DNA of 64,000 nucleotides from an uncultured Chloroflexia bacterium (lineage in GTDB: Bacteria; Chloroflexota; Limnocylindria; Limnocylindrales; CSP1-4). The notes below the pieces were generated by a model that worked only from the letters and a program-made list of their open reading frames with translations, ran no database searches and was not told the origin of the DNA. Position 1 is the stretch's first letter. Each line of letters starts with the position of its first letter. Of this stretch, positions 23,107-60,757 are shown piece after piece. The translations under genes and the position numbers were made by a program. The stretch lies in the NCBI GenBank assembly GCA_963806265.1, contig CAWDXT010000030.1, positions 21,407-85,406 on the forward strand, given 5' to 3'.

Positions 23107-23148
23107 GACAGACAAGGTTTACTATGCGACAGAGAAGGTTTACTATGC
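23107..23148. promoter_or_regulatory. 21-bp direct repeat x2 in the alr/GMC divergent promoter region
   Basis: gacagacaaggtttactatgc / gacagagaaggtttactatgc; each contains TACTAT (-10-like) and a GGTTTAC LacI-like half-site. Confidence 0.55.
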
Positions 23149-23250: not shown

Positions 23251-24864
23251 TTGGCCACCGAGCCCGCAGATGTTCTCATCATCGGCGCTGGCGCGACAGG
23301 GGGCGTGGTCGCCCTGCGCCTTGCCGAGGCCGGGTTCAGGGTCGTCTGCCTCGAGCAGGGCGACTGGCATGATCGCTCCGAGTATCGCGGTGCAGAGCTC
23401 GACTGGGAGCTCACGATGCGCAAGCAGTGGGCGACCAGCCCCAACGTGCGCGGCCAGCCCCAGGACTACCCGATCGACGAGACCGATGCCGAGATCTCGC
23501 CCCTCATGTACTCGGCCGTCGGCGGCTCGATGCTCATCTTCGCCGGTGCCTGGCCACGGATGCTGCCCTCGGACTTCCGGGTCCGCTCCCTCGATGGCAT
23601 CGCCGACGACTGGCCCCTCGGCTACGAGGAGCTTCGTCCCTACTACGAGCGCACCGACCGCCAGTTCGGGGTGTCCGGCATGGGCGGGGATCCGGCATAC
23701 CCGGGCGGGGGCGAGGACCCGCCCCTGCCTCCGCTGCCGCTCGGACCCGGTGGCATCCGGGTTGCCCGGGCGCACGCGAAGCTGGGCTGGCACTGGTGGC
23801 CGGAGCCGAACTCGATCCTCTCGGTCGACTACGACGGCCGGCACCCGTGCGTCCAGCGGGGCACCTGCCAGCAGGGCTGTGGCGAGGGGGCCAAGGCATC
23901 CACCGATCTCACCCACTGGCCCAAGGCGATCGGGCTCGGCGCACGGCTGGTGACCGGCGCGCGCGTCCAGCGGCTGGAGACCAATGCGAAGGGCCTGGTG
24001 ACCGGCGCCACCTGGCGCGACCGCGAGGGCGTAGAGCATTTCGAGCCGGCGAAGGTCGTCGTCATGGCGGCGAACGCGATCGGCACCGCGCGCCTGCTGC
24101 TGCTGTCCGCCTCGTCGGCGCATCCCGACGGCCTGGCCAACAGCTCCGGGCTGGTAGGCAGGCGGCTGATGATGCATCCCTTCGCCAACGTGGGCGGGCT
24201 GTTCGACGAGGACCTCGAAAGCTGGCAGGGCCAGTTCGGCTGCTCGATCGAGTCGTTCGAGTTCTACGAGACCGACGAGCGGCGCGGGTTCGTGCGCGGT
24301 GCCAAGTGGGGTCTCGCGCCGACCTTCGGCCCGATCAACGCCGCGCTTCCCAGCCGCGCCGGGTCGCTGGTCTGGGGCCCGGAGCACCACCTCCACGTCC
24401 GGTCGCACCTCGGCAGGGGTGCCAACTGGGGGCTGTTCGGCGAGGACCTGCCCGACGAGGCGAACCAGGTGACCCTGTCGGCAACGCTCAAGGACTCGTC
24501 GGGCATCCCGGCCCCCGAGCTCCACTACAAGGTGTCCGAGAACTCGCGCCGGCTGCTCGACTTCCACATCCAGAAGGCGTCGGAGTCGCTGATGGCGGCG
24601 GGCGCCTACAAGGTCGAGGTCGACCAGCTGATGCGCTACTCGGGCTGGCACCTGCTGGGCACGGCGCGCATGGGCGACGACCCCCGGACGTCCGTGGTCG
24701 ATCGCTGGAACCGGGCGCACGACGTGCCCAACCTGTACATCGCCGACGGCAGCTGCTTCGTCACCTCGGGCGGCGTCAACCCGACGTCCACCATCTCCGC
24801 CCTCGCCCTCCGGGCCGCCGATCACATGGTGGAGACGCGGTTCAACCAGCAGGTGCCGGCGTGA
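23251..24864 (+). CDS. GMC-family flavin oxidoreductase (large subunit)
   Basis: IIGAGATGG, VGGSMLIFAG, CVQRGTCQQGC, ANAIGTARLL, WHLLGTARMG, NLYIADGS, NPTSTISALALR; AGGAGG RBS, TTG start. Confidence 0.9.
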   Translation: MATEPADVLIIGAGATGGVVALRLAEAGFRVVCLEQGDWHDRSEYRGAELDWELTMRKQWATSPNVRGQPQDYPIDETDAEISPLMYSAVGGSMLIFAGAWPRMLPSDFRVRSLDGIADDWPLGYEELRPYYERTDRQFGVSGMGGDPAYPGGGEDPPLPPLPLGPGGIRVARAHAKLGWHWWPEPNSILSVDYDGRHPCVQRGTCQQGCGEGAKASTDLTHWPKAIGLGARLVTGARVQRLETNAKGLVTGATWRDREGVEHFEPAKVVVMAANAIGTARLLLLSASSAHPDGLANSSGLVGRRLMMHPFANVGGLFDEDLESWQGQFGCSIESFEFYETDERRGFVRGAKWGLAPTFGPINAALPSRAGSLVWGPEHHLHVRSHLGRGANWGLFGEDLPDEANQVTLSATLKDSSGIPAPELHYKVSENSRRLLDFHIQKASESLMAAGAYKVEVDQLMRYSGWHLLGTARMGDDPRTSVVDRWNRAHDVPNLYIADGSCFVTSGGVNPTSTISALALRAADHMVETRFNQQVPA

Positions 24865-25331
24865 GCGAGGACCACGGCCAGGCAGCCGACCCGCTCGACA
24901 CGCTCGATGCCGGCCGACGGGTCGTCTTCACACGGGTCGCCGACCATCTCATCCCCGAGGCACACGGGATGCCCTCGGCGGGCGACGTGGTGGGCGACGT
25001 CCGGCTCCGGTTCGTGCTTCGGGCGCGCCCCGATCTCGTGGAGCCGCTGCGGGCGGCGCTGCGTGCGGACCTGGGCGACGATCCCGCGACCCGGCTAGCG
25101 ACGCTCGAGCGCGACGAGCCCGACCACCATGCCGCCCTGCTGCTCACCGTGGTCGGCGGCTACTACACCGACGCCGATGTCCGCGACCGCCTCGGGTACC
25201 CCGGGCAGGTCGCGAAGCAGCTCTACTCGTGGAAGGTGCCGGACTTCATCGAGGAGGGCCTCAGCGACCAGGTCCTGGCCCGCGGCCCGATCTGGCGAGA
25301 TCCCGTGACCGGCCGCCGAGCCGAGCGCTGA
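24861..25331 (+). CDS. Gluconate-2-dehydrogenase subunit 3-like partner of the GMC enzyme
   Basis: VADHLIP...VVGGYYTDADVRDRLGYPG; GTGA-coupled to the GMC gene. Confidence 0.6.
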   Translation: MSEDHGQAADPLDTLDAGRRVVFTRVADHLIPEAHGMPSAGDVVGDVRLRFVLRARPDLVEPLRAALRADLGDDPATRLATLERDEPDHHAALLLTVVGGYYTDADVRDRLGYPGQVAKQLYSWKVPDFIEEGLSDQVLARGPIWRDPVTGRRAER

Positions 25332-25411
25332 GCCGCGGCCCACGACCCCACAACCGCACCCACGACCTGGCCGGCCGACCCGACCGCGCGCACAGCAACA
25401 GGGAGCTCACC

Positions 25412-26890
25412 ATGACCGCACCTGCCAAGACCACCAGCACCGGTTGGCTCGATCCGCTCCTCGCCCAGTGGCAGCCGGGCAGCGGCGAGCCGGTCGATGT
25501 CTGCGAACCGGCGACGGGCCGTCACCTCCTGACCCTGAGGCGCTCCACGCCCGACGACGTGGCGCGCGCGGCGGCCACTGCCGCCGAGGCGCAGGCGGCC
25601 TGGGCCGAGGTGAGCTACGCGGAGCGGGCCGCGATCCTGCGGCGGGCGGCGGAGATCTACGAGGCGCACCGCGACGAGCTCGGCTCCTGGACACAGCGCG
25701 AGACCGGCGCCGTGCTACAACAAGATGCACCACGAGCAGAACTTCACGATCGCCGAGCTGCTCAACGCCTCGACCATGCCGTCACAGCCGTACGGCAAGC
25801 TCGTGCCCGTCGGTGTCGCCCGGGGCGGCTCTCCATGGTCCGCCGCGTGCCCGCCGGCGTGATCGGCGCGATCACGCCCTGGAACTCCCCGAGCGTGCTG
25901 GGCATGCGCGTGGTCGCCCCGGCGCTGGCGCTGGGCAACGCCGTGGTCCTCAAGCCCGATCCCCAGACGCCGGTGTGCGGCGGCGCGATGTTCCTCGCCG
26001 TGTTCCGCGAGGCCGGACTGCCCGAGGGCCTGCTCCAGGTCGTGGTCGGCGGCGCCGAGACGGGCGAGGCGATCGTGACCGACCCCAACGTGACGCGCGT
26101 CTCGTTCACCGGGCTCGACCGCGGCAGGCCGCCGCGTCGGCGCGCTCGCCGGCGAGCTGCTCAAGAAGGTCTCGCTCGAGCTCGGCGGCAACAATGCGCT
26201 GGTCGTGCTCGACGACGCGGACCTCGACGCGGCCGCGTCCGCCGGAGCCTATGCCTCGTTCCAGTTCCAGGGACAGGTGTGCTTCGCGACCGGGCGCCAC
26301 ATCGTCCATCGGAGCGTGGCGGCCGCGTACACCGACGCGCTGGTCGAGAAGGCCGGCGCGGCTCCGGCTGGGCGACCCGTTCCGCGAGGAGGTCGATCTC
26401 GGCCCGATCGTCAACGAGAAGCAGCTCGCCCGCGTGGACGGGATCGTCCAGCGCTCGGTCGAGGGCGGGGCGCGGCTGGCTGTCGGCGGCACGCACGAGG
26501 GCCTGTTCTACCGGCCCACGGTGCTCGCTGACGTGACCACCGATCTCCCCGTCTGGACCGACGAGACGTTCGGACCCGTCGCGCCGGTCGTCACCTTCGA
26601 CACCGACGAGGAGGCGCTGGCGCTCGCCAACGACAGCGACTACGGGCTGGCCGGTGCCGTCTACTCGCGCTCGATCTCGCGCGGCCTCGCGCTCGCGCAG
26701 CGCATGCGGTCGGGGATGGTCCACGTCAACGACCAGACCGTCAACGACGAGGCGGTGATCCCGTTCGGCGGGATGGGCCTGTCCGGGAACGGCGGCCGGT
26801 TCGGCGGCGAGGCCAACTGGGACGAGTTCACCGAGTGGCAGTGGGTGACCGTCCGCGACGAGCCCAAGTCGTTCGACGTTCCCGTACTGA
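25412..26890 (+). CDS. Aldehyde dehydrogenase (benzaldehyde-DH-like); several indels
   Basis: GAITPWN, LKPDPQTP, SFTG, SLELGGNN, FQFQGQVCFA, DETFGP, YGLAGAV, PFGGMGLSGNGGRFGG. Confidence 0.85.
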
Positions 26891-26900
26891 GCCGACCGAC

Positions 26901-27949
26901 GTGGCATCGATCACCGAGGTCGCGCGGCTCGCCGGCGTGTCGGTCGCAACTGCGTCGCGCGTCATGTCGGACGCGGACTACCCGGTCAGCGCGGCGGCTC
27001 GCGAGCGCGTGCTCGACGCGGCCCGGACGCTCGACTACGTGCCCAACGCGCTTGCCCGCGGGCTGCTCAAGAGCCAGGTCCCGGTGGTGGGCGTGATCGT
27101 CCACGACATCACCGACCCGTACTTCGCCGAGGTCGTGCGCGGCGTCGAGGACGCGGCGTCGCCGGCCGGCTTCCTGGTCATCACCTGCAGCTCGGAGCGC
27201 GATCCCGAGCGCGAGAGCTCCTACGTCCGGCTGCTGCGCTCGATGCGCGCCGCCGCGATCATCTTCGCGGGCAGCGGCCTCGACGACCCGGCGCTCAACG
27301 AGGAGCTGCCCAAGCACCTGGCGGCGATGCGCGAGCAGGGCGCGGCGGTCGTCCACCTCTCGCCCCACGCGCTGGGTGAGCCCGAGATCGGCGTCGACAA
27401 CGCCGGCGGGCGTGGCGGCGATGGTCGCGGCCCTGGTGGAGCTCGGTCATCGCCGGATCGCGTTCCTGGCCGGGCCGGCATCGCTGTACGTGGCGCGCGA
27501 GCGGCTGGCCGGCTACCGGGCGCGGTCTCGAGGCGGCGGGCATCGAGGTCGACGAGCGCCTGGTCGTGCAGACCTGGCTTCGACCGGGAGGGTGGCGCCG
27601 CTGGGCGTGGACACGCTGCTCGCCGGCGATGGCGCCGTTCACCGCGGTGTGTGCCGCCAACGACCTGCTTGCGCTGGGCGCGCTGGAGCGCCTCGCGCGA
27701 GCTCGGGCATCGACGTGCCCGCGCGAGGTCTCGGTCGCCGGCTTCGACGACATCTCGATGGCGTCGATGACCGCGCCCGGCCCTGTCCACCGTCCGGCTG
27801 CCGCTGCGCGAGCTTGGCCGTCTCGGGTTCGCCTACGCGGACGTGATGCTGGCCGGCGAGGACGGCCGCCCGAGCTGATGCCGACCGAGGTCGTGCTTCG
27901 CGGTCACCGCGGCTCCGCGGCCGGTGGTCCCGCTCCCGGTCGCCGCTGA
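26901..27949 (+). CDS. LacI-family transcriptional regulator; several indels, end approximate
   Basis: SITEVARLAGVSVATASRV HTH, YVPNALARGL, CAANDLLALG, SVAGFDDI. Confidence 0.85.
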
Positions 27950-28016
27950 GCGCCCCTGCTCCGGCGCCGGACCTCGCCCGGAGCAGGCTGCCGACCCTCG
28001 AGGAGACTGCGACGCC

Positions 28017-28839
28017 ATGACGGTCCCGACGGCCGCTCGCGATCCCCGCGCGGCGCACTCGGAGCGTCCAGATCGCGTGCGATCGCGTGGCCAAGTCCTA
28101 TCGAACGGCGAAGGGTGGCCGCCAGCAGGCGCTTGCCCTCGTGGACCTCGAGATCCCGCGCGGCCAGTTCATCTCGCTGCTCGGATCCCTCGGGATGCGG
28201 CAAGACGACGCTGCTCAAGATGATCGGTGGCCTGATCGAGCCGAGCGGCGGCGACCTGTGGATCGATGGTCAGCCGGTCGCGGCGGCGGTGCGGCAGCGG
28301 AAGTTCGGCTTCGTGTTCCAGGATGCGACGCTGCTGCCGTGGCGCACCGTGCTCGGACAACGCGACGCTGCTGCTCGACGTCACCGGCCAGGGCGGAGCG
28401 GCGCGAGCGCGTCAGGGCGCTCCTGGACATGGTCGGCCTCGCCGGCTTCGAGCGCTACTACCCCGCGCAGCTGTCGGGCGGCATGAAGCAGCGGGTGGCG
28501 CTGGCACGCGCCCTCGCGCTCGAGCCGGAGATCCTGCTCATGGACGAGCCGTTCGCGGCGCTCGACGCGATCACCCGCGACCGGATGGGCGAGGAGCTGC
28601 TCAAGATCCTCGACGGGAGCCGAACGGTCGTGTTCGTCACCCACTCGATCGGCGAGGCGATCCTGCTGTCCGACCGCGTGGTGGTGATGTCCGCCCGGCC
28701 CGGCCGGGTGGTGGCCGACGTGACGATCGACCTGCCGCGGCCGCGCGATCCCGGCGTGCGCGACAGCGCGGCGTTCGGAGCGTACGAGCAGCAGCTTCGG
28801 AGCCACATCGAGGTCGACGGGGAGGGCGCCCATGGCTGA
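28017..28839 (+). CDS. ABC transporter ATP-binding protein (TauB/SsuB type); indels
   Basis: [57 protein letters not shown]. Confidence 0.85.
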
Positions 28840-29681
28840 GCGCGTCGAGCTCCGGGACTCGGTCGTGACCCCGACCGTCGCCGCGAGCCGGGCGGTGCCG
28901 CTCCGCTCGCGCCGCAGCGTGCAGCGGGCCCTGCCGGCCGCGTTCCTGCTGCTCGTGCTGCTGGTCGTGGGAGATCGTCGCCCACCTGGGCAGCGTCCCC
29001 ACCTACATCCTGCCTGCGCCCACGGCGATCGCCGCAGCGGGTCGTCGACTCATGGGCCACCCTCTGGGACGCGACGATCGTGACCACGTCCGAGGTGCTG
29101 ATCGGGTTCGTCGTCGGGGTCGCGCTGGGGATCGGGCTCGCCATCCCGATCGCCTACTCGCGTTGATCGTCCGCAGCACCCTGTACCCGCTGATCGTGGC
29201 GTCGCAGGCCGTGCCCAAGATCGCGATCGCGCCGCTGCTCGTGCTGTGGCTCGGCTTCGGCATCTGGCCCAAGATCGCCGTCACGGCCCTGATGGTGTTC
29301 TTCCCGGTGACGGTCACCGCGGCCGAGGGGTTCTCGTCCGTGGATCGCAACCTGCTCGACCTGCTCCGATCCGTCAATGCGTCACCAGCCCAGATCTTCC
29401 TGCGCGTCCGGTTCCCGCATGCCCTGCCCCATATCTTCAGCGGGCTCAAGGTGGGCATCACGCTCGCGGTCGTGGGCGCCGTCGTGGGCGAATGGGTCGG
29501 CGCCGACAGCGGTCTCGGATACCTGCTGACGTACGCGAACACCCTGCTCGATTCGACGTTGCTGTTCGCCGCCTTGTTCATGCTCATCGTCCTGGGGGTG
29601 ATCCTGTTCGTGGCTGGTGGATCTCGCGGAGCGGTTGCTGCTTCCGTGGCACAGCGGCATGAGGTCGCCGTTGGCAGCTAG
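28832..29681 (+). CDS. ABC transporter permease (TauC/SsuC type); indels
   Basis: [48 protein letters not shown]. Confidence 0.85.
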
Positions 29682-29742
29682 CAGGGGCGGAAGGAGCCGC
29701 CCGAGCCATCAAGCAGAGGCCCGAGTCACGAAGGAGAGCAAG

Positions 29743-30797
29743 ATGCACCAGCGTTCACGCCACCTCCACCTCGTCGCCACGCTCGCGGCAGCACTCGCGC
29801 TGGCCGCCTGCAGCGGCAGCGCTGCGACCACGGCGCCAACCGAGGCCCCGGCCACGACGGCACCGACCGAAGCGGCCTCGATGGCACCCGAGTCGGCGAC
29901 GCCCATGGCCATGACCGATGTCACGTTCCGGCTCAACTGGGTGATCGCCGGCAACCACGCTCCGTTCTTCCTCGCCAAGCAGAAGGGCTTCTGGGAGTCC
30001 TGCGGGCTCAACGTGACGATGGCCGCCGGCAAGGGCTCGGGTGACACCGCCCAGCTGGTCGCCAACGGCTCGCAGGACTTCGGCCTGACCGACGCGGTAT
30101 CCATCTCGGCGTCACGGACCAAGGGCCTGCCGGTGAAGTCGCTGGGCGTCCTGTACCAGACCAACCCTGCCTCGATCGTGTCCTACAAGGACAAGGGGAT
30201 CACGACCCTCCAGGACGTCAAGGGCAAGACCTTCGGGGCCGTTCCCGGCGGATCGCCATACCTGCTGCTCAAGGCGCTGTTCAAGGAGCAGGGCATCGCG
30301 GACAGCGACTACCACGAGGTCACCGTCCCCGCGCCCGGCATCGCCCAGCTCAAGGCCGGGCAGGTGGACTTCATCACGTTCTTCGGCAACGAGGCCGCGA
30401 ACATCGACCCCAACGCTCCGAGAACCTCAACGTGCTGCCGTTCAAGGACTACGGCCAGGACATCTATGGCCTCGCGATCGCGTCCAACGACAGCTTCATC
30501 TCCGAGCATCCGGACGAGGTGCGCTGCTTCGTGTCCGGTGTGAAGCAGGGCCTCGAAGCGGCGCAGGCTGATCCGCAGGCCGCGCTCGACGCGTTGTATG
30601 CGGCGGCGCCCGAGACGAAAGACAAGGCCGACGGCATGGCCCAGCTGCTGGCCGGTGTCTGGGACTACACCGGAACGACCTTCCTGGAGCAGACCGCGGC
30701 CAAGTGGGATGCGACCCAGAAGGTGCTCGCGGACGCCGGGATCATCACAAACACGATCGAGCCCGATCAGTTCTTCACCAACGACTACCAGCAGTGA
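29743..30797 (+). CDS. ABC substrate-binding lipoprotein, NMT1/THI5-like; indel near 30420
   Basis: Lipobox ALAAC, Thr/Ala/Pro linker, FRLNWVIAGNHAPFFLAKQKG, GKGSGDTAQLVANG. Confidence 0.8.
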
Positions 30798-30805
30798 GGC
30801 ACGGC

Positions 30806-31736
30806 ATGTCCATCAACCTGCGCGGGATCGTTCCCGCGTGCGTCGTCACCTTCGACGAGGACGGCCGCTTCGATGAGGCCGCCTACCGTCGCTATCTTCA
30901 GTGGTTGCTGCCGCAGGGCCCGGTCGCGCTGGCGATCAACGCCGACACCGGCGAGGGTCCCCACCTGTGGCCCGACGAGCGCGATCGCGTCCTCCGGGTC
31001 GCGGTCGAGGAGGCCGGGGACGTGCCGGTGGTGGCCGGGCTGTCCGCCCAGTTCACGGCCCAGGCGGTGGACGAGGCGAACCGGGCGAAGGATGCCGGTG
31101 CGTCCGCGCTGCCTGGTGTTCCCGATCCCGGCCTACCAGGGCACACCGCTCGATCCCGCGATCCCGGTCGCGTACCACGAGGCGATCGCCCGTGGCTGCG
31201 GCCTGCCGATGATCGCGTTCCAGCTCCAGCCGGCGCTGGGCGGCGTCATCTTCTCCGAGGAGACGCTCGCTCGCATCGCCGCCATCGACAGCGTGGTGGC
31301 GCTCAAGGAGGCGTCGTTCGACGCTCGTCTGTACCTCCAGACGCGACGCATGATCGAGCGCCTCGAGCGCCCGATCGACCTGCTGACGGGCGACGACAAC
31401 TTCGTGTTCGAGTCCTTCGTGATGGGCGCCGAGGGAGCGCTGATCGGGTTCGGGACGCTGGCCACCGACCTCCAGGTCGAGATGGTCCGCCTCGCCCGGG
31501 AGGAGCGGTGGGCGGAGGCACGCGCGATCTGGGAGCGGATCCTCCCGCTTGAGGAGGTCGTGTACGGGCCGCCGGTCCGTGACTACCGGGCGCGCACCAA
31601 GATCGCGCTGCGCGAGCTTGGCGTGATCTCGTCCACCGTCATGCGACCGCCGCTGCAACCGGTGGCCGATGACGTCCGGGGCGCCGTGCGTGAGGCCCTC
31701 GCTGCGGCGGGGCTGCTGCCCGTGGGGGTCGCTTGA
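30806..31736 (+). CDS. DapA/NanA-family class I aldolase-like protein; indel near 31110
   Basis: GIVPACVVTFDEDG, NADTGEG, Schiff-base VVALKEAS, LLTGDD, GAEGALIG. Confidence 0.75.
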
Positions 31737-32492
31737 TGGGCGACCCGCTCGCGGGCCGCGTCGTGCTGATCACCGGCAGCAGCCGTGGGATCGGCGCAGA
31801 GATCGCCGTCCGGGCCGCCCGCGAGGGCGCCCGGGTGGCGATCCACTACCGTCGCGCCGCGGACGGAGCGGCCAGGACGCTGGAACGCGTGCGAGATGCC
31901 GGTTCGGACGGCGCGACGTTTGCGGCCGATGTCGTCCGACGGATCGGCCGCCGAGGGTCTTGTCATCGAGGTGCTCGACGCGTTCGGGCGCCTGGACGGC
32001 CTCGTGAACAATGCCGGACTGACCCAGGTCGGCCCGTTCCTCGAGATCGCGCCCGAGACCTGGGACGCGGTTCTCGCCACCGACCTGTCGGCCGCGTTCC
32101 ACACCTGCCGTGCCGCGCTGCCCTCGATGCTCGCTCGCGGCTCGGGGTCGATCGTCAACGTCGCGTCGCGGCTGGGTCAGATGGGGATCGCGGAGACCGC
32201 CGCGTACAGCGCAGCGAAGGCGGGCCTCATCGGCCTGACCCGATCGCTGGCACGAGAGGTCGGTCCGCGCGGCGTCCGGGTCAACGCGGTCGCCCCGGGC
32301 ATGATCGAGACCGAGATGACCACCGACCTCGCGGCGAGCGACGAGGGTCGCCGGCGGCTGCGCGACATGCCGATCGGTCGGTTCGGCCGACCCGAGGAGG
32401 TCGCCGACGCGGTCGTGTTCCTGCTGTCGGACGCGTCGTCGCTGTTCCTGGGCCAGACCCTCAACCCCAACGGCGGGGGGTACATGCCATGA
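31736..32492 (+). CDS. Short-chain dehydrogenase/reductase (FabG-like); indel near 31935
   Basis: ITGSSRGIG, LVNNAG, YSAAK, VNAVAPGMIET, GQTLNPNGG. Confidence 0.85.
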
Positions 32493-34096
32493 GCGGCCGA
32501 ATGGTGAGCGGCAACGAAGGCGCGACCAGCAAGGTCATCCCCGTCCGCGAAGCGGTCGCGCTCGTGCGCGACGGCGCGACGGTCGTCGTCGGCGGCTCCG
32601 GCGCCGGCCATGCGCTGCCGCAGCGCTTCATCGACGAGCTGGCCGCAGTCTTCGCGGAGACGGGCCACCCGCGCGACCTGACCACGGTTCGCGTGGTGGG
32701 CATCGGCGACTTCGCCGATCGCGGCTTCAGCCAGCTCGGGCTGCCGGGCCTTCAGCGCCGGACCATCGGCAGCAACATCGGCAACGAGCCGCGCCTGGGC
32801 GCGCTGGTCGAGGCCAACGAGATCGAGGCCTACTCGTTCCCGCAGGGCGTGCTATCGGAGCTGATGCGCGAGATCGCCGCCGGGCGCCCGGGCCTCGTGA
32901 CCCACGTCGGCCTGGGCACGTACGTCGACCCACGCCAGACCGGTGGCCGGCAGAACGCGCGCACGACCGAGGACCTGGTCGAGGTCGTCACGCTGCGCGG
33001 ATCGCGAATGGCTGCTGTTCCACGCGTTTCCCATCGACGTCGCCGTCATCCGTGGCACGACGGCCGACGAGGACGGCAACCTCACGATGGAGGGCGAGGC
33101 CGTCCAGGGCGAGATGCTGGCGATGGCCATGGCGGCCCGCAACAGCGGCGGGATCGTCATCGCGCAGGTCCGCCAGCTGGCCCGCCGTGGCAGCCTGCCG
33201 CCAGCGCGACGTCAAGGTGCCGGCGGCGCTCGTGGACCATGTCTACGTCGATCCGGACCAGTGGCAGACCTACATCACCCGCGACTCGCCGTACTACGCC
33301 GGCGCGCTGCGTCGGCCGGTCACCGACGAGCCGCCGCTGCCGCTCGACGTGCGCAAGCTCATCGCCCGTCGGTCGCTGCTCGAGTTCCCGCCCGGGCGCG
33401 ATCTGCAACCTCGGGCTTCGGCATCAGCCAGCTGATCGGCCGGGTCGCCTGGGAGGAGGGGATCACCGACCAGCTGGTGCTGACGGTGGAGCAGGGGATC
33501 TTCGGCGGCGTCCCGGTGGCCGGCAACGAGGGCGGCGCCGGGTTCAACTACCAGGCGATGATCGACCAGCCCTACATGTTCGACTTCTACGACGGCGGCG
33601 GGCTCGACATCGCGAGCCTCTCGTTCGCCGAGGTCGATGCCGAGGGCAACGTCAACGTCCACGCCTTCGAGGGCCGGGTGCGGGGGCCCGGCGGCTTCCC
33701 CAACATCAGCGCCCGCACGCCGCGGATCAACTTCGTGGGCACGCTCACCGCGCAGGGCCTGGAGCTGGAGATCGACGGCGGCGTCCGCGTCATCCGCGAG
33801 GGCAGCCTGCGCAAGTTCGTGCCCCGCGTGCGCGAGATCTCGTTCAACGGCCCGCTGGCCCGCGAGCGTGGCCAGCAGGTGCGGTTCATCACCGATCGCG
33901 CGGTGTTCGAGCTGGGCGATGACGGCCTGGTGCTGATCGAGGTCGCACCCGGGATCGACGTGGAGCGCGACGTGCTTGGCCAGATGGGCTTCCGCCCACG
34001 TGTCGCGGAGGCGCTGCGGACGATGGATCCCCGCCTGTACGCGACCGGTCCGATGGGCCTGGCCGCCGACTTCGCCGCCCACGCGGGGACGGGCCG

Positions 34097-34100
<4 letters not shown>
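32489..34100 (+). CDS. Family I acyl-CoA:acetate CoA-transferase (YdiF/Pct-like, single chain); indels
   Basis: YSFPQGV, THVGLGTYVDPR, ADEDGNL, NLG.GIS, LTVEQG (catalytic Glu), YDGGGLD, GGFPNIS, ITDRAVFEL. Confidence 0.85.
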
Positions 34101-34881
<781 letters not shown>

Positions 34882-34909
34882 GGCCGCCGCACACAAAGGA
34901 GCCTGCCCG

Positions 34910-35962
34910 ATGAGCAACGTCGGCCGATTCGGCGTCTTCCTGCCGTCCTACATCTGGGAGGGCGACGGCGCCGAACGCGCCCGGGGAATCAAGTCCTTCG
35001 CGCGCGAGGTCGAGGAGCTGGGCTTCGACTCCCTGTTCATCACGGACCACCTGCTCGCGGCCCGTCGCTTCTACTCCGTGAACTGGCTGGAGCCGCTGAC
35101 GAGCCTGGCCGTGGCGGCGGGCGTCACCGAGCGGGTCCGGCTCGGGACGTCGATCCTGATCATGCCGCTGCGCAACCCGGTGATCCTGGCCAAGGAGCTG
35201 GCGACGCTCCAGTTCCTGTCCGACAACCGGGTCATCCTCGGCGCGGGCGTGGGCTGGAACGAGGCCGAGTACGAGGCGGTCGGCGTGCACAAGTCGGAGC
35301 GCGGCCGCCGCACCGACGAGATGCTCGACATCATGATGCCGCTGCTCGAGGGCGAGACCGTCACCTACCACGGCCGCTACTACTCGGTGGACGACGTGTT
35401 CATCGAGCCGCGGACGGCACAGCGGCCCGAGCTCTGGATCGGCGGCGGATCCCAGCTGGCCGATCCCAAGTCGCCGGACCTGCCCCGGTTCGTCGAGTCG
35501 GTCAAGGCGCGCACCGTCCGCATCGGACGGCTGGATCCCGCGGCCGACCTGCCCGCCCGACGACATCGCCCGCGACTGGACGGAGCTCCAGGCCTACTAT
35601 CGCGAGCACGGCCGCGACCCCGCGACGAGCGCGTGGTCGCGCACGAGAACTTCCTCCACCTGGTGCTGACCAACGACCCGGCCAAGGCCCGCGAGGAGCA
35701 GCACCGCGCGTTCCTCAAGGTCATGAGCACCGAGCGCGGGCCGAGCAGTACCTCGAGTCCGTCTACCTGTTCGGCACGCCGGACGAGATCGTCGCCTCGC
35801 TCCAGGCGCGGGTCGACGCCGGGCGTCGAGTACTTCATCCTCCACACCATGACGCCCGACCCGGCGCAGCTCCGGCACTGGGTGGACGAGATCATCCCCA
35901 ACGTCACCTTCCCGCCCACCGCCGGGCCGGTCCGGCCGCGGTCGGCCCCGGTCGTCGCGTGA
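34910..35962 (+). CDS. Luciferase-like (LLM) flavin/F420-dependent oxidoreductase; indels
   Basis: GFDSLFITDH, EPLTSLAVAAGVTERVRLGTSIL...RNPVILAK, GAGVGWNEAEY, LWIGG. Confidence 0.85.
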   Translation: MSNVGRFGVFLPSYIWEGDGAERARGIKSFAREVEELGFDSLFITDHLLAARRFYSVNWLEPLTSLAVAAGVTERVRLGTSILIMPLRNPVILAKELATLQFLSDNRVILGAGVGWNEAEYEAVGVHKSERGRRTDEMLDIMMPLLEGETVTYHGRYYSVDDVFIEPRTAQRPELWIGGGSQLADPKSPDLPRFVESVKARTVRIGRLDPAADLPARRHRPRLDGAPGLLSRARPRPRDERVVAHENFLHLVLTNDPAKAREEQHRAFLKVMSTERGPSSTSSPSTCSARRTRSSPRSRRGSTPGVEYFILHTMTPDPAQLRHWVDEIIPNVTFPPTAGPVRPRSAPVVA

Positions 35963-35968
35963 CCGCCG

Positions 35969-36833
35969 ATGACCCGGCGCGTCGCGCCTGCTCGGCAAGC
36001 CGCTCCAGCGGCGCCATTCGCAGGTGATGCACGACGCCGCGTTCGACGCGGCCGGGATCGACGCCCGCTACGTCCTGCTCGAGCTCGAGCCGGGCGAGGT
36101 CGAGGCCGCCGTGGCCGAGGCGCGTGGCCCGGGCTGGCTGGGCCTCGGGCGTGACCGCGCCCTACAAGCGCGTCGTCGCCGGCCTGTGCGACGAGGTCGA
36201 GGACGGACGCCGGGCGATCGGCGCGGTCAACAACGTCGTGCGCACCGACGACGGTCGGCTGGTCGGGATCAACTCCGACGCGCCCGGGGTTCCGCGCCGG
36301 CGTCGAGCTCGCGATGGGCTTCCGATCCGGGGCGGCAACGTCGTCGTCGCCGGGGCCGGTGGTGCGGCCGACGCGGTCGTGTTCGCGTGCCTGCCGCGCG
36401 GGTGCGCGCCGGGTGACCGTCGGCAACCGGACGACCCGGCGCGGCCGAGGCGCTCGTGGCCCAGCTGCGACGGGCATCGGGCACACGTCGCTGCACGCCA
36501 CGGCGCTCGACGACGCCGCCTTCGACGAGGCGCTGGGGTCGGCGGACCTCGCCGTCAACGCCACCACCGTGGGCATGGTCGACCCGGGCATGACGATCGC
36601 GTGGACGCGCTGCCCGATTGGGCGACCGTGTTCGATCTCGTCTACGTCCCGCCCGAGACGCCGCTGCTCCGGGCGGCCCGGGCGCGAGGGCTGCGCGGCG
36701 GCAACGGATCGGAGATGCTCATCGCCCAGGCCGCGATCGCGTTCGAGCGCTGGACCGGCGTCGGGCGGCATGGCCGACGTCATGCGCGCGGCCGTCGCGC
36801 CGCTGCTCGCCGATCCGGCGCGCGGAGGCCTGA
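35969..36833 (+). CDS. Shikimate/quinate 5-dehydrogenase-family protein; several indels
   Basis: HSQVMHDAAF, VTAPYK, IGAVNN, INSDAPG, NATTVGM, FDLVYVP, MLIAQAAIAFERWTG. Confidence 0.8.
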
Positions 36834-36836
36834 CCG

Positions 36837-37711
36837 ATGCGTCTCGCGACGATCGTCGCCGATGGCGGCTGCCGTTCGCGCGGTCGTCGATGACGAGCGC
36901 GTGCTGCCACTGGTCGCGGTCGCCGGTGACGATGCCCCGCCCGACCGGCAGCGGCATCCGCGATCGCTGGCCGCCGGCGGGCACGCGGCCATCGGTCGCG
37001 TCCGGAGCTGGGCGGAGCGGCAGCCGGCGACGGCGTGGCAGCCGCTCGCCGACGCCCGACTCGGGCCGCCGTCCCGGACCCGGGCGCGATCTACACGGTC
37101 GGGCTGAACTACCGCGATCCCCGGCGCGCGCCGAGGCAGGCGCCGGACCGGCCGCTCGTCTACGGCAAGGCCGCCACATCGGTCGTCCGCCACGGCGCGG
37201 TCCTGACGTGGGACCGGGCGCTGACCGCCAACGTCGATGCCGAGGTCGAGCTGGGCGTCGTGATCGGCGAGCCGGCGTGGCGGGTGGCGCCCGCGTGACG
37301 CGATGCGCCATGTCTTCGGCTACACGTGCGTCAACGACGTCTCGTCGCGCGATCCGTGGCTCGACGGCGACCAGTGGCTGCTGGGCAAGTCGATGCCCGG
37401 GCTTCTGCCCGGTCGGCCCGTGGATCGTCACCGCCGACGAGCATCGACCCGGCCGAGCCTGCGCCTTGGCTGCACCATCAACGGCGAGCCGATCCAGGAC
37501 GGCACGCACCGCCGACATGCGGTTCTCCGTCGCCGAGGATCATCTCGTACCTCAGCCGGCACCTGGTGCTCCGGCCGGGCGACCTCATCGCGACCGGCAC
37601 CCCGGCCGGCTCGCAGGCGCCGCCCGGGACCGGACCGGCATCTCGAGACCGGCGACGAGGTCGTCGTGCTGGATCGAGGGCATCGGCGAGCTCACCACCA
37701 CCATCGCCTGA
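36837..37711 (+). CDS. Fumarylacetoacetate-hydrolase-family protein; several indels
   Basis: IYTVGLNY, LVYGK, DAEVELGVVIG, GYTCVNDVSSRD, WLLGKS, LRPGDLIATGTP. Confidence 0.8.
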
Positions 37712-37732
37712 CGACGAGCAAGGAGGCCGGCC

Positions 37733-38526
37733 GTGAAGCCCGCGACCGTGTTCCTGGGCGAGATGACGACGCTCGAGGTCGAGGCGTTCCTGCGAGAGCA
37801 CCAGACCGTGATCGTGCCGATCGGCTCGACCGAGCAGCACGGCCCGCACGGCGCCGCTGGCGACGGACGTCCTCGTCCCGACCGAGGTCGCCCGCCGGGT
37901 CGCGCCGCGGGTCGGGGCGCTCGTGGCGCCGGCCGGTCAACTACGGGCTGTCGTACCCGCATACCGGGTTCACGGGCGTCGTCCAGCTCCGGATCCCGAC
38001 GTTCATGGCCGTCATCGAGGACCTGTGCGCGTCGCTCGCGACCGTCGGGTTCACCCGGATCGTGTTCCTCAACGGCCACTACGACAACACGTATGCCATC
38101 GCCTACGCCTGCGCCAACGCCGCCGACCGGCCTGCCGGCGGGCGTGCGCGCCTTCCCGGTCAACTACTGGGACGGGATGACGCCCGACGAGGCGGCGGAG
38201 TACTTCGACCCGTCCAACGGGCTGCACGCCAACAAGGGCGAGACGGCGGCGGTGCTGGCGATCAACCCGGACCTCGTGGACATGGAGCGGGCGAACGTCG
38301 AGTTCCCGCCCTTCCCCGAGGTCACGAACGCGGCCGCCGTGCACACCGCGTTCTTCTTCTCGGCCCCGGGCTCGGTCTACCGCGCGACCCATTCGGGCAC
38401 CTGGGGCGACGCCCGCGAGGCCACGCCCGAGTTCGGCGAGCGCTACCTCGACGGTCGTCGACCGAGGCGACGATCCGGCTGCTCGACGACGTCGAGCGGA
38501 CGTTCGCCGCGATGCCGCCGCGCTGA
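37733..38526 (+). CDS. Creatininase-family cyclic amidohydrolase; indels
   Basis: VPIGSTEQHGPH, TDVL, FLNGHYDN, HANKGETA, GTWGDA. Confidence 0.8.
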
Positions 38527-38667
38527 GCTCGAGAGCCGCACGAGCCGCCCGGCGGACAGGTTGCCGCGGGGCTGGCAACGTCGGGACAGGGACTGACCCC
38601 GGCCGGACCCCGGCCGCCGGCAATCCCTTCCGGCGGTAGGCTGAGGCGATGATCAGGCATCGCACCC

Positions 38668-39591
38668 ATGAGCACCGTTGTCGTCGCCCTTCCCGATCTC
38701 CCGGAGCTGCGGCACCTCGGTGAGCTGCCCGACAGACGTCGAGGTCGTCCTTGCCCCGGAGGGCGGCCCACGCCCGACCTGTCGCGCGTCGATCTCGCCG
38801 TCCCCACCCGCTGGCTGCGGCGACCGCTGCTCGATGCGATCGGATCGCTGGGCCACCTGCGGGTGATCCAGACGCTGAGCGCGGGGTCGACTGGCTCGTC
38901 GGCCGGGTGCCGGAGCGGATCAGGTGTGCAATGCGCGCGGCGTGTACGACGTGCCGCTGGCGGAATGGGTTGTGGGCTCGATCCTTGCGATGCAGCCGCG
39001 GTCTCGTGGACGCGCGTGACGCGCAGGCGAGCGGCGAGTGGGTCGATCTCGTGCCGGGTGAGCTCGCCGGCCGGCGGGTCGTGATCCTGGGCTTCGGCTC
39101 GATCGGCGCGACCGTCGCTGATCGGCTGGCGCCGCTCGAGGTGGAGATCGTGGGCGTGGCGCGCTCGCCTCGGGACGGTGTTGCCGGCATGGACGAGCTC
39201 GACGGTCTTCTGCCCGACGGCCGAGATCCTGGTCGACCTGCTGCCGCTCACGAGCGAGACGGCGGGCTTCCTCGACGGGCGCCGGCTCGGGTTGCTGCCG
39301 GACGGCGCGCTCGTCGTCAACGCGGGCCGCGGCCGCACCGTGGATACCGAGGCGCTGGTGACGGAGCTGCGGTCGGGCCGGCTCCGGGCCGCGCTTGATG
39401 TCACCGACCCCGAACCGCTGCCCGCGGGCCACCCCCTGTGGGCGCTGCCCAACGCGCTGATCACGCCGCACATCGCCGGCGACTCGCCCGAGGCGGAGGT
39501 GCGGGCATTCCGGCTGGCCGGCGACCAGATCCGGCGGTTCGCGGCCGGCGAGCCCCTGATCAACCAGGTACCCCGCTACCTGCTGCGCTGA
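38668..39591 (+). CDS. D-isomer-specific 2-hydroxyacid dehydrogenase; indels
   Basis: [46 protein letters not shown]. Confidence 0.85.
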
Positions 39592-39638
39592 GCCGGAACG
39601 CTCCGGACGTCTGCGGCAAAGCCGACTATCGTCAACGC

Positions 39639-42600
39639 GTGCACAGCACCGCGTCCCTGGAGGCCAACGGCCCGCTCGCGTTCCTGTTCACTGACATCGC
39701 GGGCAGCACCCGGCTCTGGGAGCAGATGCCCGAGGCGATGGGCAGGGCGCTTGCCCGGCATGACGCCATCCTGCAGTCGGCGATCACCGCCGCCGGCGGA
39801 CAGGTGGTCAAGACCACCGGCGATGGGCTCATGGCGGTCTTCCCGGACGCCGCCAGGGGGGTGACGGCCTGTCTCGCCGCCCAGCGCGGCCTCGCCGCCG
39901 AGCCGTGGGGCGAGACCGGTCCGCTCCGTGTCCGGATGGGGCTGCACGTGGGCCGGGCGGAGCGCCGCGGCGACGACTACTTCGGCCCTTCGGTCAACCG
40001 CACCGCACGGCTCATGGCCGCCGGGCACGGCGGCCAGGTCCTGCTCTCGGCCGCGGCCGTCGCGCTCGTGGGTGAGCACCCGGCCGACGACGCCACGCTG
40101 CGGGATCTCGGGGAGTACCGGCTCAAGGATCTCGGCCGCCCGGAGCGGGTGTTCCAGCTGGTCCACCCGGCGCTGGACGACGCGTTCCCGCCTCTCGCGA
40201 CCCTCGACCACCTTGCCGGCGGCCTGCCGACCCAGGTTGGAACGTTCGTCGGCCGGCGCGCCGAGCTGACCGCGATCGAGCAGCGACTCGCCGACCGGGA
40301 CGTGCGCCTGGTGACGCTGACCGGCCCCGGCGGGACCGGCAAGACCAGCCTGGCCATCCGGGCTGCCGGCGAGGTCGCCGACCGGTTCCGCGACGGGGTG
40401 TCGTTCGTGGACCTCTCGGCCGCGGCCGACACCGAGGCTGTGCTGGTCGCGCTGGGCCGGGTGATCGGGGTTCGCGAGACGCCGGATCGGTCGCTCATCG
40501 ACGATGTCACGGACCGCCTGCGCGAGCGCCAGGTGCTGCTCGTGCTCGACAACTTCGAGCAGGTCACCGCTGCGGCGGCCGTGGCGACCGAGCTCCTCGC
40601 GCGCTGCCCGGGGCTGCAGCCTCCTGGTCACCAGCCGCGAGCCGCTGCATGTTCGGCCCGAGCAGGTGATCCCGCTGTCGCCCCTCGAGGTGCCGCCCGC
40701 GGGGCGGCGGACTCCCTCCGTGGACGAGCTGCGCCGCTTCGAGGCCGTCGAGCTGTTCCTGGACCGGGCGCGGGCCGTTCGTCCCGAGTTCGAGCTGACC
40801 GGGGACAACGCGGATGCCGTGGCGGACATCTGCCGCCGGCTGGACGGGTTGCCGCTCGCGATCGAGCTCGCGGCCGCACGCCTGCGGCTGTTCTCACCCG
40901 AGGCGCTTCGCGACCGCCTGGGCCGTCGCCTCGACCTGCTGCGGAGCTCCGCTCGCGACCTGCCCGAGCGGCAGCAGACGCTGCGCGCCACGATCGACTG
41001 GAGCTTCCGCCTGCTGGAACCGGGGGAGCAGCGTCTGCTCCAGGCGCTGTCGGTGTTCGATGGCGCAGAGCTGGTGGCGGTCGAGTCCGTGGTGGAACCG
41101 GTGGTCGATGGTTCGGGCGATCCCGTGGACATCATCGAGGCGCTCGGCGCGCTGCTCGAGCAGGGTCTCGTCCGCCAGGTGGAGATCCCGGACGGTGAGC
41201 CCCGGTTCGTGATGCTCGAGACCATCCGCGAGTACGCCGCCGAGCAGCTCGACGCCCAAGCCGATGCCGCGGCGGTCCGGCGGGCACATGCCGCGTACTA
41301 CGCGGCGCTGGCCGAGCGCCTCCGGCGCGACCTCGGGGGACCTGGCCGCGACCGCGTGGTCGACGCCCTGGCGCACGACGCCGGCAATCTGCGGATCGCC
41401 TGGCGATGCTGGATCGACGACCGGAATCTCGACCAGCTGACCCGGCTGGCGGACAGCCTGCTGATCCTCAACGAGGCCCGCGGCTGGTATCGGGACACCG
41501 TCGAGCTCACCACCGACCTGCTCGCCGTGCTCGAGGAGCGCGACGCCACGCCCGAGATCGCCACCCAGGAGTTCTCGCTGCGGATGAGCCTGGCCCGTGC
41601 CCTGATGGCGACCCGCGGCTTCACGCCCGAGGTCGAGCAGGCGTACTCCAGGGCGCTTGAGCGTGCCGGGCCCGGTCGAGGGTTGCGCGAGGAGTTCACC
41701 GTCCTGCGCAGCATGGCCAACCTCCACGTCCTGCGCGCCGAGTTCGGGCAGGGCATCGAGCTCGGCAATCGGCTGCTCGCGATCGCAGACGCCGAAGGCA
41801 ACGTGAACATGCGCATCGACGGCATGCTCGTGGTCGCCACCGCGCTCGTGTTCACGGGCCGGCTGCGCGAGGGACTGGCGACCCTGGACGAGGCGATCGG
41901 GCTGTTCGCTGCTGGCCCGCCGCGGGCGGTCGGCGTGCGACAGGGAAACGAGCCGCGCGTCGCCTGCCTCACGACGTCGGCCTTCTGCCTGTGGCTGTCG
42001 GGTGAGCCGGATCGCGCGGTTGCGCGCGCCGACCAGGGGATCGACCTCGCGAGCCAGCTCCATCACCCGTGGACCTCGGCGTTCGCGACGTTCCATTCAG
42101 GGTTGCTGCACCTGTGGCGACGCGAGGAGCACGTGGTGCTGGATCGCGCCACGCGCCTGCTCGAGATCGCCGACGAGTACGACTTCCGGATCTGGTCGGC
42201 GATCGGGTCGGTGCTGCTGGGCGCGGCCGAGACCAGCGTCGGTGATCGCACGGCGGGCCTCGCGCACGTGGCGGACGGCATGGCTGCCTACCAGGGGATC
42301 GTCTCGCCGCCGGTGTTCCTGCCGATGCTGCTCTACGTCAGCGCCCGATCGTTCGGGCGCGCGGATCGACCGGCAGACGGGCTCGAGACCATCCGCACCG
42401 CGATGGACATGATGGGCGGACCCGTGTCGCCCGGCGTGCTGTTCCCGGAGCTGGCGCTGGTCCAGGGCGATCTGCTCGAGGCGATCGACGGACCGGGATC
42501 GCGCGACTCGCGCGAGGCGCACGAGCTGGCGCTGAGGACGGCCCGGCTGCTTGAGACGAGGATGTCGGAGCTGCGGGCGCTGACCCGCCTGTGCCGGTCG

Positions 42601-58199: not shown

Positions 58200-58257
58200 C
58201 GGGACGCCTCTCTGGGTCGAAATGGAGCGTTGGCGGGGATTGCCCGGTCGGTGATGC

Positions 58258-60683: not shown

Positions 60684-60757
60684 GGGTCCCTCGTCTGCTG
60701 TGCAGCGCCGATCGCGACGTTGCGGTCAGCACATCTTGCGACGTCTTGCTGATGGGC

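Follow-up and report, generated by a model that had tools for sequence, protein, structure and literature searches.

Two described pathways form the background to the gene cluster considered here. In the phloroglucinol pathway of Clostridium scatologenes (PGR, DPGC, TfD, TAL and a CoA-transferase), the ring is converted without an oxygenase to a 1,3-dione and opened by a metal-dependent retro-Claisen hydrolase, after which the hydroxy-oxo acid is the substrate of a short-chain dehydrogenase/reductase (SDR), a second C–C bond is cleaved and a CoA-transferase acts on the 3-oxoacid (PMC10470551). The MpdB/small subunit/MpdC and IbcH trios turn 2-methylpropane-1,2-diol into 2-hydroxyisobutyrate, which is then activated with CoA (PMC7176365, PMC13188929). 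The cluster described here lies in a 64-kb stretch of DNA (hereafter the window; 72% G+C) from an uncultured Chloroflexia bacterium (GCA_963806265.1, CAWDXT010000030.1) and holds genes for a GMC-family dehydrogenase with a small subunit, an aldehyde dehydrogenase (ALDH), a LacI-family regulator and a series of lyase, dehydrogenase, hydrolase and CoA-handling enzymes. Limnocylindrales, in which we find the cluster to be widespread, are abundant uncultured bacteria of soil and freshwater, and their carbon sources have largely been guessed.

We think it fairly probable that the locus is a genuine LacI-repressed catabolic operon conserved in Limnocylindrales, that its disruption in the window is an artefact of long-read assembly and that it works on a polyol or alicyclic substrate. 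An initial annotation of the window had not recognised the gene combination as a described pathway, and literature searches that included the main Limnocylindria genomics paper likewise found no described pathway with it.

Gene content of the cluster

Owing to the high G+C content, raw lists of open reading frames (ORFs) in the window were noisy. Gene calling by ORFs and third-position G+C content (GC3) broke down inside the cluster and was replaced by a frame-tracking Viterbi procedure with a self-trained codon table; it was this failure of simple gene calling that exposed the frameshifts treated below. The cluster of a genome of the same genus, G010 (L013/L021, equal to L023), is whole, uninterrupted and tightly packed and served as the intact reference for Pfam and NCBIfam scans. 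Its domain order is GMC_oxred_N/C, small subunit, Aldedh, LacI with Peripla_BP, ABC_tran, BPD_transp_1 and NMT1, followed by DHDPS, adh_short, CoA_trans, ECH_1, Bac_luciferase, Shikimate_dh_N, FAA_hydrolase and Creatininase. A cyclase/AAA regulator lies directly 3' of the creatininase gene in G010, which lacks the 2-hydroxyacid dehydrogenase gene. All cluster genes in the window are on the plus strand, and the features are as follows.

23110-23146 (+): two tandem 16-nt operator-like sites, AGACAAGGTTTACTAT and AGAGAAGGTTTACTAT; candidate LacI operator/promoter
23251-24864 (+): GMC-family flavoprotein dehydrogenase, large subunit, 537 aa, intact; Pfam GMC_oxred_N/C, putative FAD + 3Fe-4S class
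24861-25331 (+): GMC small subunit, 156 aa, intact, 4-nt overlap with the large subunit; called as an ORF
25412-26890 (+): NAD(P)-dependent ALDH, 6 private +1 insertions; Aldedh 515 bits in the orthologue
26901-28020 (+): LacI-family regulator, 12 indels of a length not divisible by three (non-3n); LacI helix-turn-helix and Peripla_BP_1/3 in the orthologue
28017-28839 (+): ABC importer ATPase, NitT/TauT type, 4 frameshifts, optional; ABC_tran, best NCBIfam matches SaoA, taurine and nitrate types
28832-29681 (+): ABC importer permease, 5 frameshifts, optional; BPD_transp_1, SsuC/TauC-like
29764-30797 (+): NMT1/THI5-like lipoprotein substrate-binding protein, about 2 frameshifts, optional; NMT1 176 bits
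30806-31736 (+): class I lyase of the dihydrodipicolinate synthase/N-acetylneuraminate lyase (DHDPS/NAL) family, not DapA, 1 frameshift; DHDPS Pfam 128 bits
31736-32492 (+): SDR, FabG-like, 1 frameshift; adh_short
32489-34100 (+): fused family I CoA-transferase, YdiF/FadX type, 4 frameshifts; CoA_trans, 2AHU 452 bits
34097-34881 (+): crotonase/enoyl-CoA hydratase, 2 frameshifts; ECH_1 180 bits
34910-35962 (+): F420-dependent luciferase-like (LLM) oxidoreductase, 4 frameshifts; TIGR03619 198 bits
35969-36833 (+): shikimate/quinate-dehydrogenase-like protein (AroE paralogue), 13 non-3n indels; Shikimate_dh_N, Shikimate_DH, SDH_C
36837-37711 (+): fumarylacetoacetate hydrolase (FAH)-fold enzyme, HpaG/HpcE- or diketo-acid-hydrolase-like, 15 non-3n indels; FAA_hydrolase 198 bits
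37733-38526 (+): creatininase-fold binuclear metallohydrolase, 5 frameshifts; Creatininase Pfam 214 bits
38668-39591 (+): D-isomer-specific 2-hydroxyacid dehydrogenase, at least 3 frames, variable add-on; 2-Hacid_dh_C in two window fragments (38751-39591)

Overlapping gene junctions are retained in the window at 24861-24864, 28017-28020, 28832-28839, 31736, 32489-32492 and 34097-34100.

Conservation across Limnocylindrales

A species-level genome collection was searched with the CoA-transferase, and the best 80 of at least 372 candidate stretches were examined, 50 of them with full flanks. These 80 loci are all from metagenome-assembled genomes (MAGs) of Limnocylindrales or Chloroflexota, with CoA-transferases 85-93% identical. 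The gene string recurs in about 49 of the 50 full-length loci of other species, far above chance: genes for the SDR, CoA-transferase, crotonase, LLM oxidoreductase, AroE-like, FAH and creatininase-like proteins are present in all 50, those for the GMC protein, its small subunit, the ALDH and a DHDPS-like protein in 49, and LacI in 46. Among 40 relatives searched with the GMC protein, 13 genomes of the same genus had orthologues of 77-92% identity, and a homologue search with the creatininase-like protein returned more than 3,400 close Limnocylindrales orthologues, with no distant named relatives among them.

The core thus delimited has twelve genes (GMC, small subunit, ALDH, LacI, DHDPS-like, SDR, YdiF-type CoA-transferase, crotonase, F420-LLM, AroE-like, FAH and creatininase-like). 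The NMT1 ABC importer (ATPase, permease and binding protein), found in four of the 50 full loci besides the window, and the 2-hydroxyacid dehydrogenase, intact in three, are optional, strain-level add-ons. No conserved co-oriented gene was found 3' of the creatininase-like gene in 60 loci. The DHDPS-like gene takes one of two positions, either after LacI as in the window or, as a version 52-56% identical, upstream of the GMC gene; one locus, L102, has only the seven-gene back end and no GMC module. Within the genus the cluster is accessory, as the genomes G005 and G023 are without it and have only the housekeeping aroE.

Other genes are frequent around the core. A divergent pair encoding a metallo-beta-lactamase-fold (MBL) hydrolase and an SDR adjoins the operon upstream in 31 of the 50 loci (e.g. 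L097 2877-4594) and occurs in the source genome at another locus (G000 C27:183313-185066); it may supply the pathway with an accessory lactonase and dehydrogenase. Downstream, a convergent block comprises genes for a NagA-like amidohydrolase, a GntR/UTRA regulator, a ROK kinase and a CUT2 sugar ABC transporter (L097 15961-21548; L090 16619-21184), each present in 14-36 of the 50 loci. At the optional importer, the 5' end of the G010 binding-protein ORF (L013 12031-12130), MPQESPMPQESPMHQRPHPMHQRPHPMHQRPHPMH, has short in-frame tandem repeats before the lipoprotein signal, and the true start of this gene is probably the last Met.

A predicted LacI operator

Two AT-rich 16-nt sites with a 21-nt period (23110-23125 and 23131-23146) lie some 105-140 nt 5' of the GMC gene. 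Scanning promoter regions for inverted repeats in general gave nothing consistent, and the motif came from this AT-rich direct repeat, which was seen by eye. In 36 of 48 loci its degenerate form, AGnnAAnnTTTRCTRT, is found 40-180 nt 5' of the operon's first gene; every match in these 48 loci falls within that zone, and there are 51 matches over the 1.42 Mb of all 80 loci. It occurs nowhere else in the window, is absent from all four LacI-less loci and was not found before the SDR gene. Across L023-L101 the motif lies 5' of the GMC gene or of the upstream DHDPS-like gene, and the window's subgroup has tandem copies. The most symmetric versions, AGCAAACGTTTGCT, are fully palindromic in some loci and have a central CG, as is typical of LacI-family operators. 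The regulator itself combines an N-terminal helix-turn-helix with a periplasmic-binding-protein-like effector domain, as expected of a LacI-family repressor with a palindromic predicted operator.

The confinement of the motif to the 5' region and its absence where LacI is lacking support a single LacI-controlled unit, predicted to start at the GMC gene or at the upstream DHDPS-like gene. Because the core is conserved, its junctions overlap, the predicted operator is confined upstream and co-varies with LacI, and the cluster is accessory within the genus, we regard the operon as real. Part of the initial annotation of the locus stands. The association of a catabolic cluster with LacI is borne out by the predicted operator, which is seen 5' of the first gene in 36 of 48 loci but in none of the four loci that lack LacI, and co-occurrence in other genomes, which had been named as a check, is seen in the string shared by about 49 of the 50 full-length loci. 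The content, order, strand and coupling of the 16 co-oriented, partly coupled genes also hold, but these are not 16 open genes: only two are uninterrupted, and the frame breaks had evidently been translated through. The 2-hydroxyacid dehydrogenase, present in just three of 50 loci, does not count among the conserved genes.

Families of the core enzymes

The GMC large subunit matches the FAD-glucose dehydrogenase of Burkholderia cepacia (6A2U) end to end with 252 bits, with the three 3Fe-4S cysteines aligned, and is also a full-length match to Gluconobacter fructose dehydrogenase (7W2J). By these similarities it is a putative member of the FAD + 3Fe-4S sugar/polyol dehydrogenase class. It is 51% identical to IbcH from plasmid pELW1-1 of Mycolicibacterium sp. 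ELW1; the small subunit, which has no Pfam or NCBIfam match, is 33% identical (E = 2.5e-12) to IbcI, the small protein after IbcH. The ALDH has family-level NCBIfam matches to alpha-ketoglutarate semialdehyde, glyceraldehyde and lactaldehyde dehydrogenases. The trio appears to resemble the MpdB/IbcH-type diol-to-hydroxyacid modules, which does not imply a tert-butyl-type diol as substrate. A mycofactocin system was considered and rejected, since MftE scores 104.5 against a cut-off of 172 and MftG 68.7 against 387, and no radical-SAM gene is present in the cluster. The genomic context of a rhizobial GMC homologue was uninformative.

Among the enzymes of the back end, the CoA-transferase matches Escherichia coli YdiF (2AHU) with 452 bits over residues 16-530, and the FadX equivalog with 369 against a cut-off of 750. 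The LLM protein exceeds the cut-off of TIGR03619 (F420-dependent, Rv2161c type; 198.2 against 166.9 bits). The genus has an F420 gene: CofD is above cut-off in G006, G010 and G014 and is present but split in G000. Assignment of the LLM protein as a RutA-like or other FMN monooxygenase was rejected, as it scores only 47 bits against the NtaA/DmoA family cut-off of 279.7, and no RutA model is among the 22 matches listed.

The AroE-like protein keeps the catalytic Lys (APYK) and Asp (NSD) motifs, with its best equivalog at 202 against a cut-off of 252. It is not the housekeeping AroE, of which each genome has a better-scoring copy elsewhere and which is the only copy in genomes without the cluster; its sequence indicates that it is an SDH-superfamily paralogue. 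A third Shikimate_dh_N paralogue is present in some members of the genus (G006 C1:2043210, G014 C17:183247 and G010 C8:122812), and in G006 and G014 it lies 14-17 kb upstream of the cluster.

In the DHDPS-like protein the Schiff-base Lys161 is retained (ALKEAS), with Phe at the position of Tyr133 and Leu at that of Arg138. With these replacements and 120.8 bits against the TIGR00674 cut-off of 206, it was rejected as DapA. Its best match in the PDB is 1S5W, an entry with Phe at the Tyr133 position, which we take to be a Y133F mutant. Neighbours of the FAH protein in the PDB are HpaG, L-2,4-diketo-3-deoxyrhamnonate hydrolase and FAHD1, i.e. diketo-acid hydrolases and decarboxylases.

Metal ligands of the creatininase-like protein align with Glu34, His36, Asp45, His120 and Glu122 (as Asp), together with His178, in what is presumably the numbering of the Pseudomonas putida enzyme. 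The fold and active site are therefore seen, although the protein scores 138.9 bits against the TIGR04448 cut-off of 235 and is about 30% identical to solved creatininases; its nearest solved structures are cyclic-amide hydrolases. Identity with IolN was rejected (NF041098, 90.3 bits against a cut-off of 245; no Gfo/Idh/MocA, IolM or IolO genes in the cluster). Assignment of dihydrophloroglucinol cyclohydrolase to the creatininase family was rejected as well, since that enzyme belongs to the 'cyclase' family and only its logic is analogous. The nearest cultured creatininase-family homologues, from haloarchaea (38-42% identity), lie on plasmids in unrelated neighbourhoods.

Proposed pathway and alternative explanations

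From these family assignments we infer a five-step working of the operon. The GMC protein with its small subunit (MpdB/IbcH type) and the ALDH would act on a polyhydroxylated substrate and oxidize a primary alcohol group to a carboxylate, and the AroE-like protein and the SDR would convert secondary hydroxyls, probably those of a ring, to ketones. Hydrolytic cleavage of the resulting 1,3-dicarbonyl or lactone might then follow through the creatininase-fold and FAH-fold enzymes, with no oxygenase. The YdiF-type CoA-transferase, the crotonase and the F420-LLM would deal with the acid products as thioesters of CoA, and the DHDPS-like lyase could release pyruvate and an aldehyde, the latter also usable by the ALDH.

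The core brings together oxidoreductases, enzymes of two hydrolase folds, a CoA module and a lyase; it contains neither an oxygenase nor a nitrogen-handling enzyme. The substrate is most likely a hydroxylated alicyclic acid, a cyclitol or a branched polyol. A modified sugar or cyclitol, which the initial annotation had offered as its second choice, fits better than the hydroxymethyl N-heterocycle that it preferred. Its proposal that the GMC protein and the ALDH turn an alcohol into an acid gains from the 51% identity to IbcH, which suggests a module of the MpdB/MpdC diol-to-2-hydroxyacid type, and the CoA-dependent lower pathway it envisaged appears plausible given the YdiF-type transferase and the crotonase. 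More specifically, and only tentatively, the operon might encode an undescribed oxygenase-free route, widespread in Limnocylindrales, in which a quinate-, shikimate- or cyclitol-like carbocycle is opened by two hydrolytic retro-Claisen cleavages and the products are processed as CoA thioesters with an F420-LLM reductase; in this particular form we consider it unlikely to hold.

Several observations weigh against the proposed working of the operon. None of the enzymes reaches an equivalog cut-off, so that the steps are assigned at family level only. The cluster has no sugar-acid dehydratase, thiolase or acyl-CoA dehydrogenase, which leaves both a classical sugar-acid route and a beta-oxidation route incomplete. 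Finally, the presence of the back end without the GMC module in L102 and the two positions of the DHDPS-like gene mean that the operon may be two modules with different substrates.

Of the alternatives, the one that survives best is a non-phosphorylative sugar-acid or cyclitol route, which we regard as possible but doubtful. A diketo-cyclitol or lactone would be opened in the manner of IolN, the FAH protein would act as a keto-deoxy-acid dehydratase or hydrolase, the DHDPS-like lyase would yield pyruvate and an aldehyde, and the ALDH, together with the 2-hydroxyacid dehydrogenase where present, would carry out the final steps. The weak IolN match of the creatininase-like protein, the nearness of the FAH protein to the L-2,4-diketo-3-deoxyrhamnonate hydrolase/HpaG type, the family-level matches of the ALDH to dehydrogenases of alpha-ketoglutarate semialdehyde, glyceraldehyde and lactaldehyde, and the pairing of a LacI regulator with a GMC protein of the glucose/fructose-dehydrogenase class are all consistent with such a route. 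However, it leaves the invariant and highly conserved trio of CoA-transferase, crotonase and F420-LLM without a role, a sugar-acid dehydratase of the usual families is absent from the cluster, and all scores are under the equivalog cut-offs.

A somewhat less probable explanation, and in our judgement an unlikely one, is that two independent modules travel together: a LacI-controlled diol or polyol oxidation module (DHDPS-like, GMC, small subunit and ALDH) and a seven-gene unit for another substrate, for example a quinate- or shikimate-like acid handled as a CoA thioester. The seven-gene unit (SDR to creatininase-like) stands alone in L102, the DHDPS-like gene switches between the units, the junction is exactly where LacI and the optional importer lie, and the transferase is homologous to YdiF, near whose gene E. 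coli likewise has an AroE paralogue (ydiB). Yet both units are adjacent and co-oriented, with short gaps, in 49 of the 50 loci, and the operator motif is found solely upstream of the first gene, with none before the SDR gene.

In the N-heterocycle reading, a hydroxymethylpyrimidine-, pyridoxine- or nucleobase-like compound would be taken up, its side chain oxidized by the GMC protein and the ALDH, its ring opened by the LLM protein and an amide hydrolysed by the creatininase-family member, before a lower pathway that depends on CoA. This reading could account for the NMT1/THI5-type binding protein in the window, for an oxidation module able to convert a hydroxymethyl group to an acid, for the cyclic-amide hydrolases that are the nearest structures of the creatininase-fold enzyme and for the MBL hydrolase and SDR pair beside the cluster in 31 of 50 loci, a pair that recalls the lactonase and dehydrogenase steps of pyridoxine degradation. 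Nevertheless, it is left without its chief support because the importer of the NMT1 type is optional, being absent from 46 loci that keep the whole enzyme set and present in only four of the 50, and because the LLM protein is of the F420 type (TIGR03619, above cut-off) and not an FMN monooxygenase like RutA, NtaA/DmoA reaching just 47 bits. The core has no amidase, deaminase, aminotransferase or other nitrogen-handling enzyme, and the presumed amide hydrolase falls below the creatininase cut-off in a family that also holds IolN, a C–C hydrolase of carbocycles. LacI, the GMC protein of the sugar/polyol dehydrogenase class and the AroE-like, FAH and DHDPS-like proteins point to oxygenated carbon skeletons instead. 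A polyol, cyclitol or alicyclic acid is therefore more likely than a hydroxymethyl N-heterocycle, which we consider very unlikely.

Frameshifts in the window copy

Only the GMC (23251-24864) and small-subunit (24861-25331) genes are uninterrupted in the window; the other 14 of the 16 genes are broken. Viterbi tracking shows the plus-strand frame shifting every 100-600 nt between about 25.3 and 39.2 kb, whereas most of the remaining window consists of long single-frame genes. Each of the N-terminus, middle and C-terminus of the ALDH is in a frame of its own, and LacI and the ABC ATPase also drift between frames. A DNA alignment of five genomes found six single-base insertions in the ALDH gene that occur in the window only, and the binding-protein gene has a 1-nt deletion near 30422. 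Counts of non-3n indels relative to G010 are 0 in GMC, 6 in ALDH, 12 in LacI, 4 in the ATPase, 5 in the permease and 2 in the substrate-binding protein; 1 each in the DHDPS-like and SDR genes, 4 in the CoA-transferase, 2 in the crotonase and 4 in the LLM; and 13 in the AroE-like, 15 in the FAH and 5 in the creatininase-like gene. In total the cluster has about 70 one-base indels in the window, almost certainly errors of the long-read assembly. Aligned over the whole cluster with eight other sequences, it has 56 private insertions of 1-2 nt against about 16 deletions, while the two closest relatives have 4-6 insertions each. There are no large deletions.

With indel columns removed, the ratio of non-synonymous to synonymous divergence (dN/dS) between the window and relatives is 0.08-0.34, matching that of a pair of intact relatives, and amino-acid changes are not in excess on the branch leading to the window. 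When loci were assigned by record titles to the long-read 'MFD' MAGs or to short-read MAGs, frame breaks in the 12 core genes were found in 56 of 508 genes in 43 MFD loci but in none of 348 genes in 37 other, short-read loci (Fisher p = 6e-14). Excess frame switching also affects a quarter of 10-kb bins of the genome in a patchy manner, and completeness is 62.7% despite only 38 contigs. The cofD gene for F420 biosynthesis is broken into two frames and has an in-frame TGA (G000 C6:102043-102793); in three relatives it is intact.

That the indels are biased towards insertions, that selective constraint is unaltered and that breakage depends on the sequencing technology all speak for local errors in the consensus of the long-read assembly rather than for decay, and the window copy should best be treated as mis-assembled, not as a string of pseudogenes. 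One result goes against this interpretation: rpoB and rpoC of the source genome are intact, so that the errors are local, and the check for genome-wide errors did not discriminate. True decay into a pseudogene string after loss of selection is the least probable explanation of all, and we regard it as remote: 14 neighbouring genes are frame-broken beside a whole GMC gene and distant whole rpoB and rpoC, and the accessory distribution of the cluster makes its loss tolerable, but the indels are nearly all +1 insertions, opposite to the deletion bias of bacterial pseudogenes, large deletions are not seen, neither dN/dS nor the window branch is raised, and like breakage is confined to long-read MFD MAGs and never occurs in the 37 short-read loci.

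Synonymous divergence (dS) from G010 is mosaic, with values of 0.05-0.23 for the ATPase, permease, CoA-transferase, crotonase and LLM genes (28017-29681 and 32489-35962) and 0.4-0.7 for the remaining cluster genes, which sit nearer L024. This pattern stems either from recombination between species that occur together or from a consensus that is chimeric; a chimera might also account for the local indel errors.

Frame switching is also seen outside the cluster. The downstream adenylate/guanylate-cyclase-AAA-TPR regulator (39438-42720) appears as two overlapping ORFs in different frames (39438-41198 and 40504-42720), while the N-terminal 700 residues of its G010 counterpart are in one frame; the split is probably a further assembly frameshift near 40.5 kb. 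Other stretches in which the frame switches on one strand every 100-400 nt in the Viterbi path (6262-7396, 56861-58206 and 60186-62548) are likely more patches of indel errors, and domain losses or truncated genes in them need comparison with relatives before use.

Implications

A 12-gene operon with 70-90% protein identity across hundreds of Limnocylindrales genomes, with its own repressor and predicted operator, marks a substrate that is important to these bacteria. Identifying it would add a route of soil carbon turnover and could give functions to the TIGR03619 F420-LLM family, the AroE paralogue and the creatininase-fold enzyme. The locus also illustrates that local indels in long-read MAGs can make a healthy operon pass for a field of pseudogenes, or be read through unnoticed.

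Comparison with known systems

The operon is a new combination of known enzyme kinds, and its likeness to described systems differs from part to part. The disruption of the window copy resembles the residual indel errors of long-read (Nanopore) MAGs in being locally clustered, private to the assembly, without effect on dN/dS and confined to the long-read series, although here the errors are strongly insertion-biased and patchy; low depth, strain mixture or base modification are candidate causes.

For the oxidation module, the B. cepacia FAD-glucose dehydrogenase (6A2U) and the Gluconobacter fructose dehydrogenase (7W2J) are alike in their full-length matches of about 250 bits, their 3Fe-4S cysteines and their small partner subunit, but the cluster has no gene for a cytochrome c subunit and, judged by eye, the small subunit shows no evident twin-arginine signal. 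Much closer relatives of the GMC protein are the MpdB/IbcH-type enzymes. MpdB/MpdC of Mycolicibacterium austroafricanum and Actinomycetospora and IbcH-IbcI-IbcJ share the shape of the trio, i.e. a large flavoprotein, a small subunit and an ALDH, and in both these systems and the operon the resulting acid would next be handled as a CoA ester (PMC7176365, PMC13188929). The operon differs in that its ALDH is just 32% identical, in its LacI regulation, in its use of a YdiF-type transferase in place of the HCL ligase, and in having neither a mutase nor a thiamine diphosphate (TPP)-dependent lyase.

The transferase itself shares with E. coli YdiF the end-to-end fused alpha/beta architecture of family I. 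In E. coli the AroE paralogue ydiB presumably lies near ydiF, but the gene context is otherwise unrelated and YdiF's own physiological substrate is poorly defined.

For the hydrolytic steps, IolN, the 3-dehydro-scyllo-inosose hydrolase of the Thermotoga inositol pathway, is of the same fold family as the creatininase-like protein. This creatininase-fold metallohydrolase opens a carbocyclic diketone made by two dehydrogenases, a logic like that suggested for the AroE-like protein, the SDR and the creatininase-like protein, and it serves as a working analogy for the operon, not as a statement of membership. The phloroglucinol pathway of C. scatologenes is likewise similar in logic, but its ring hydrolase is of the 'cyclase' family, its second cleavage is by a BKACE enzyme and none of its enzymes is orthologous to those of the operon.

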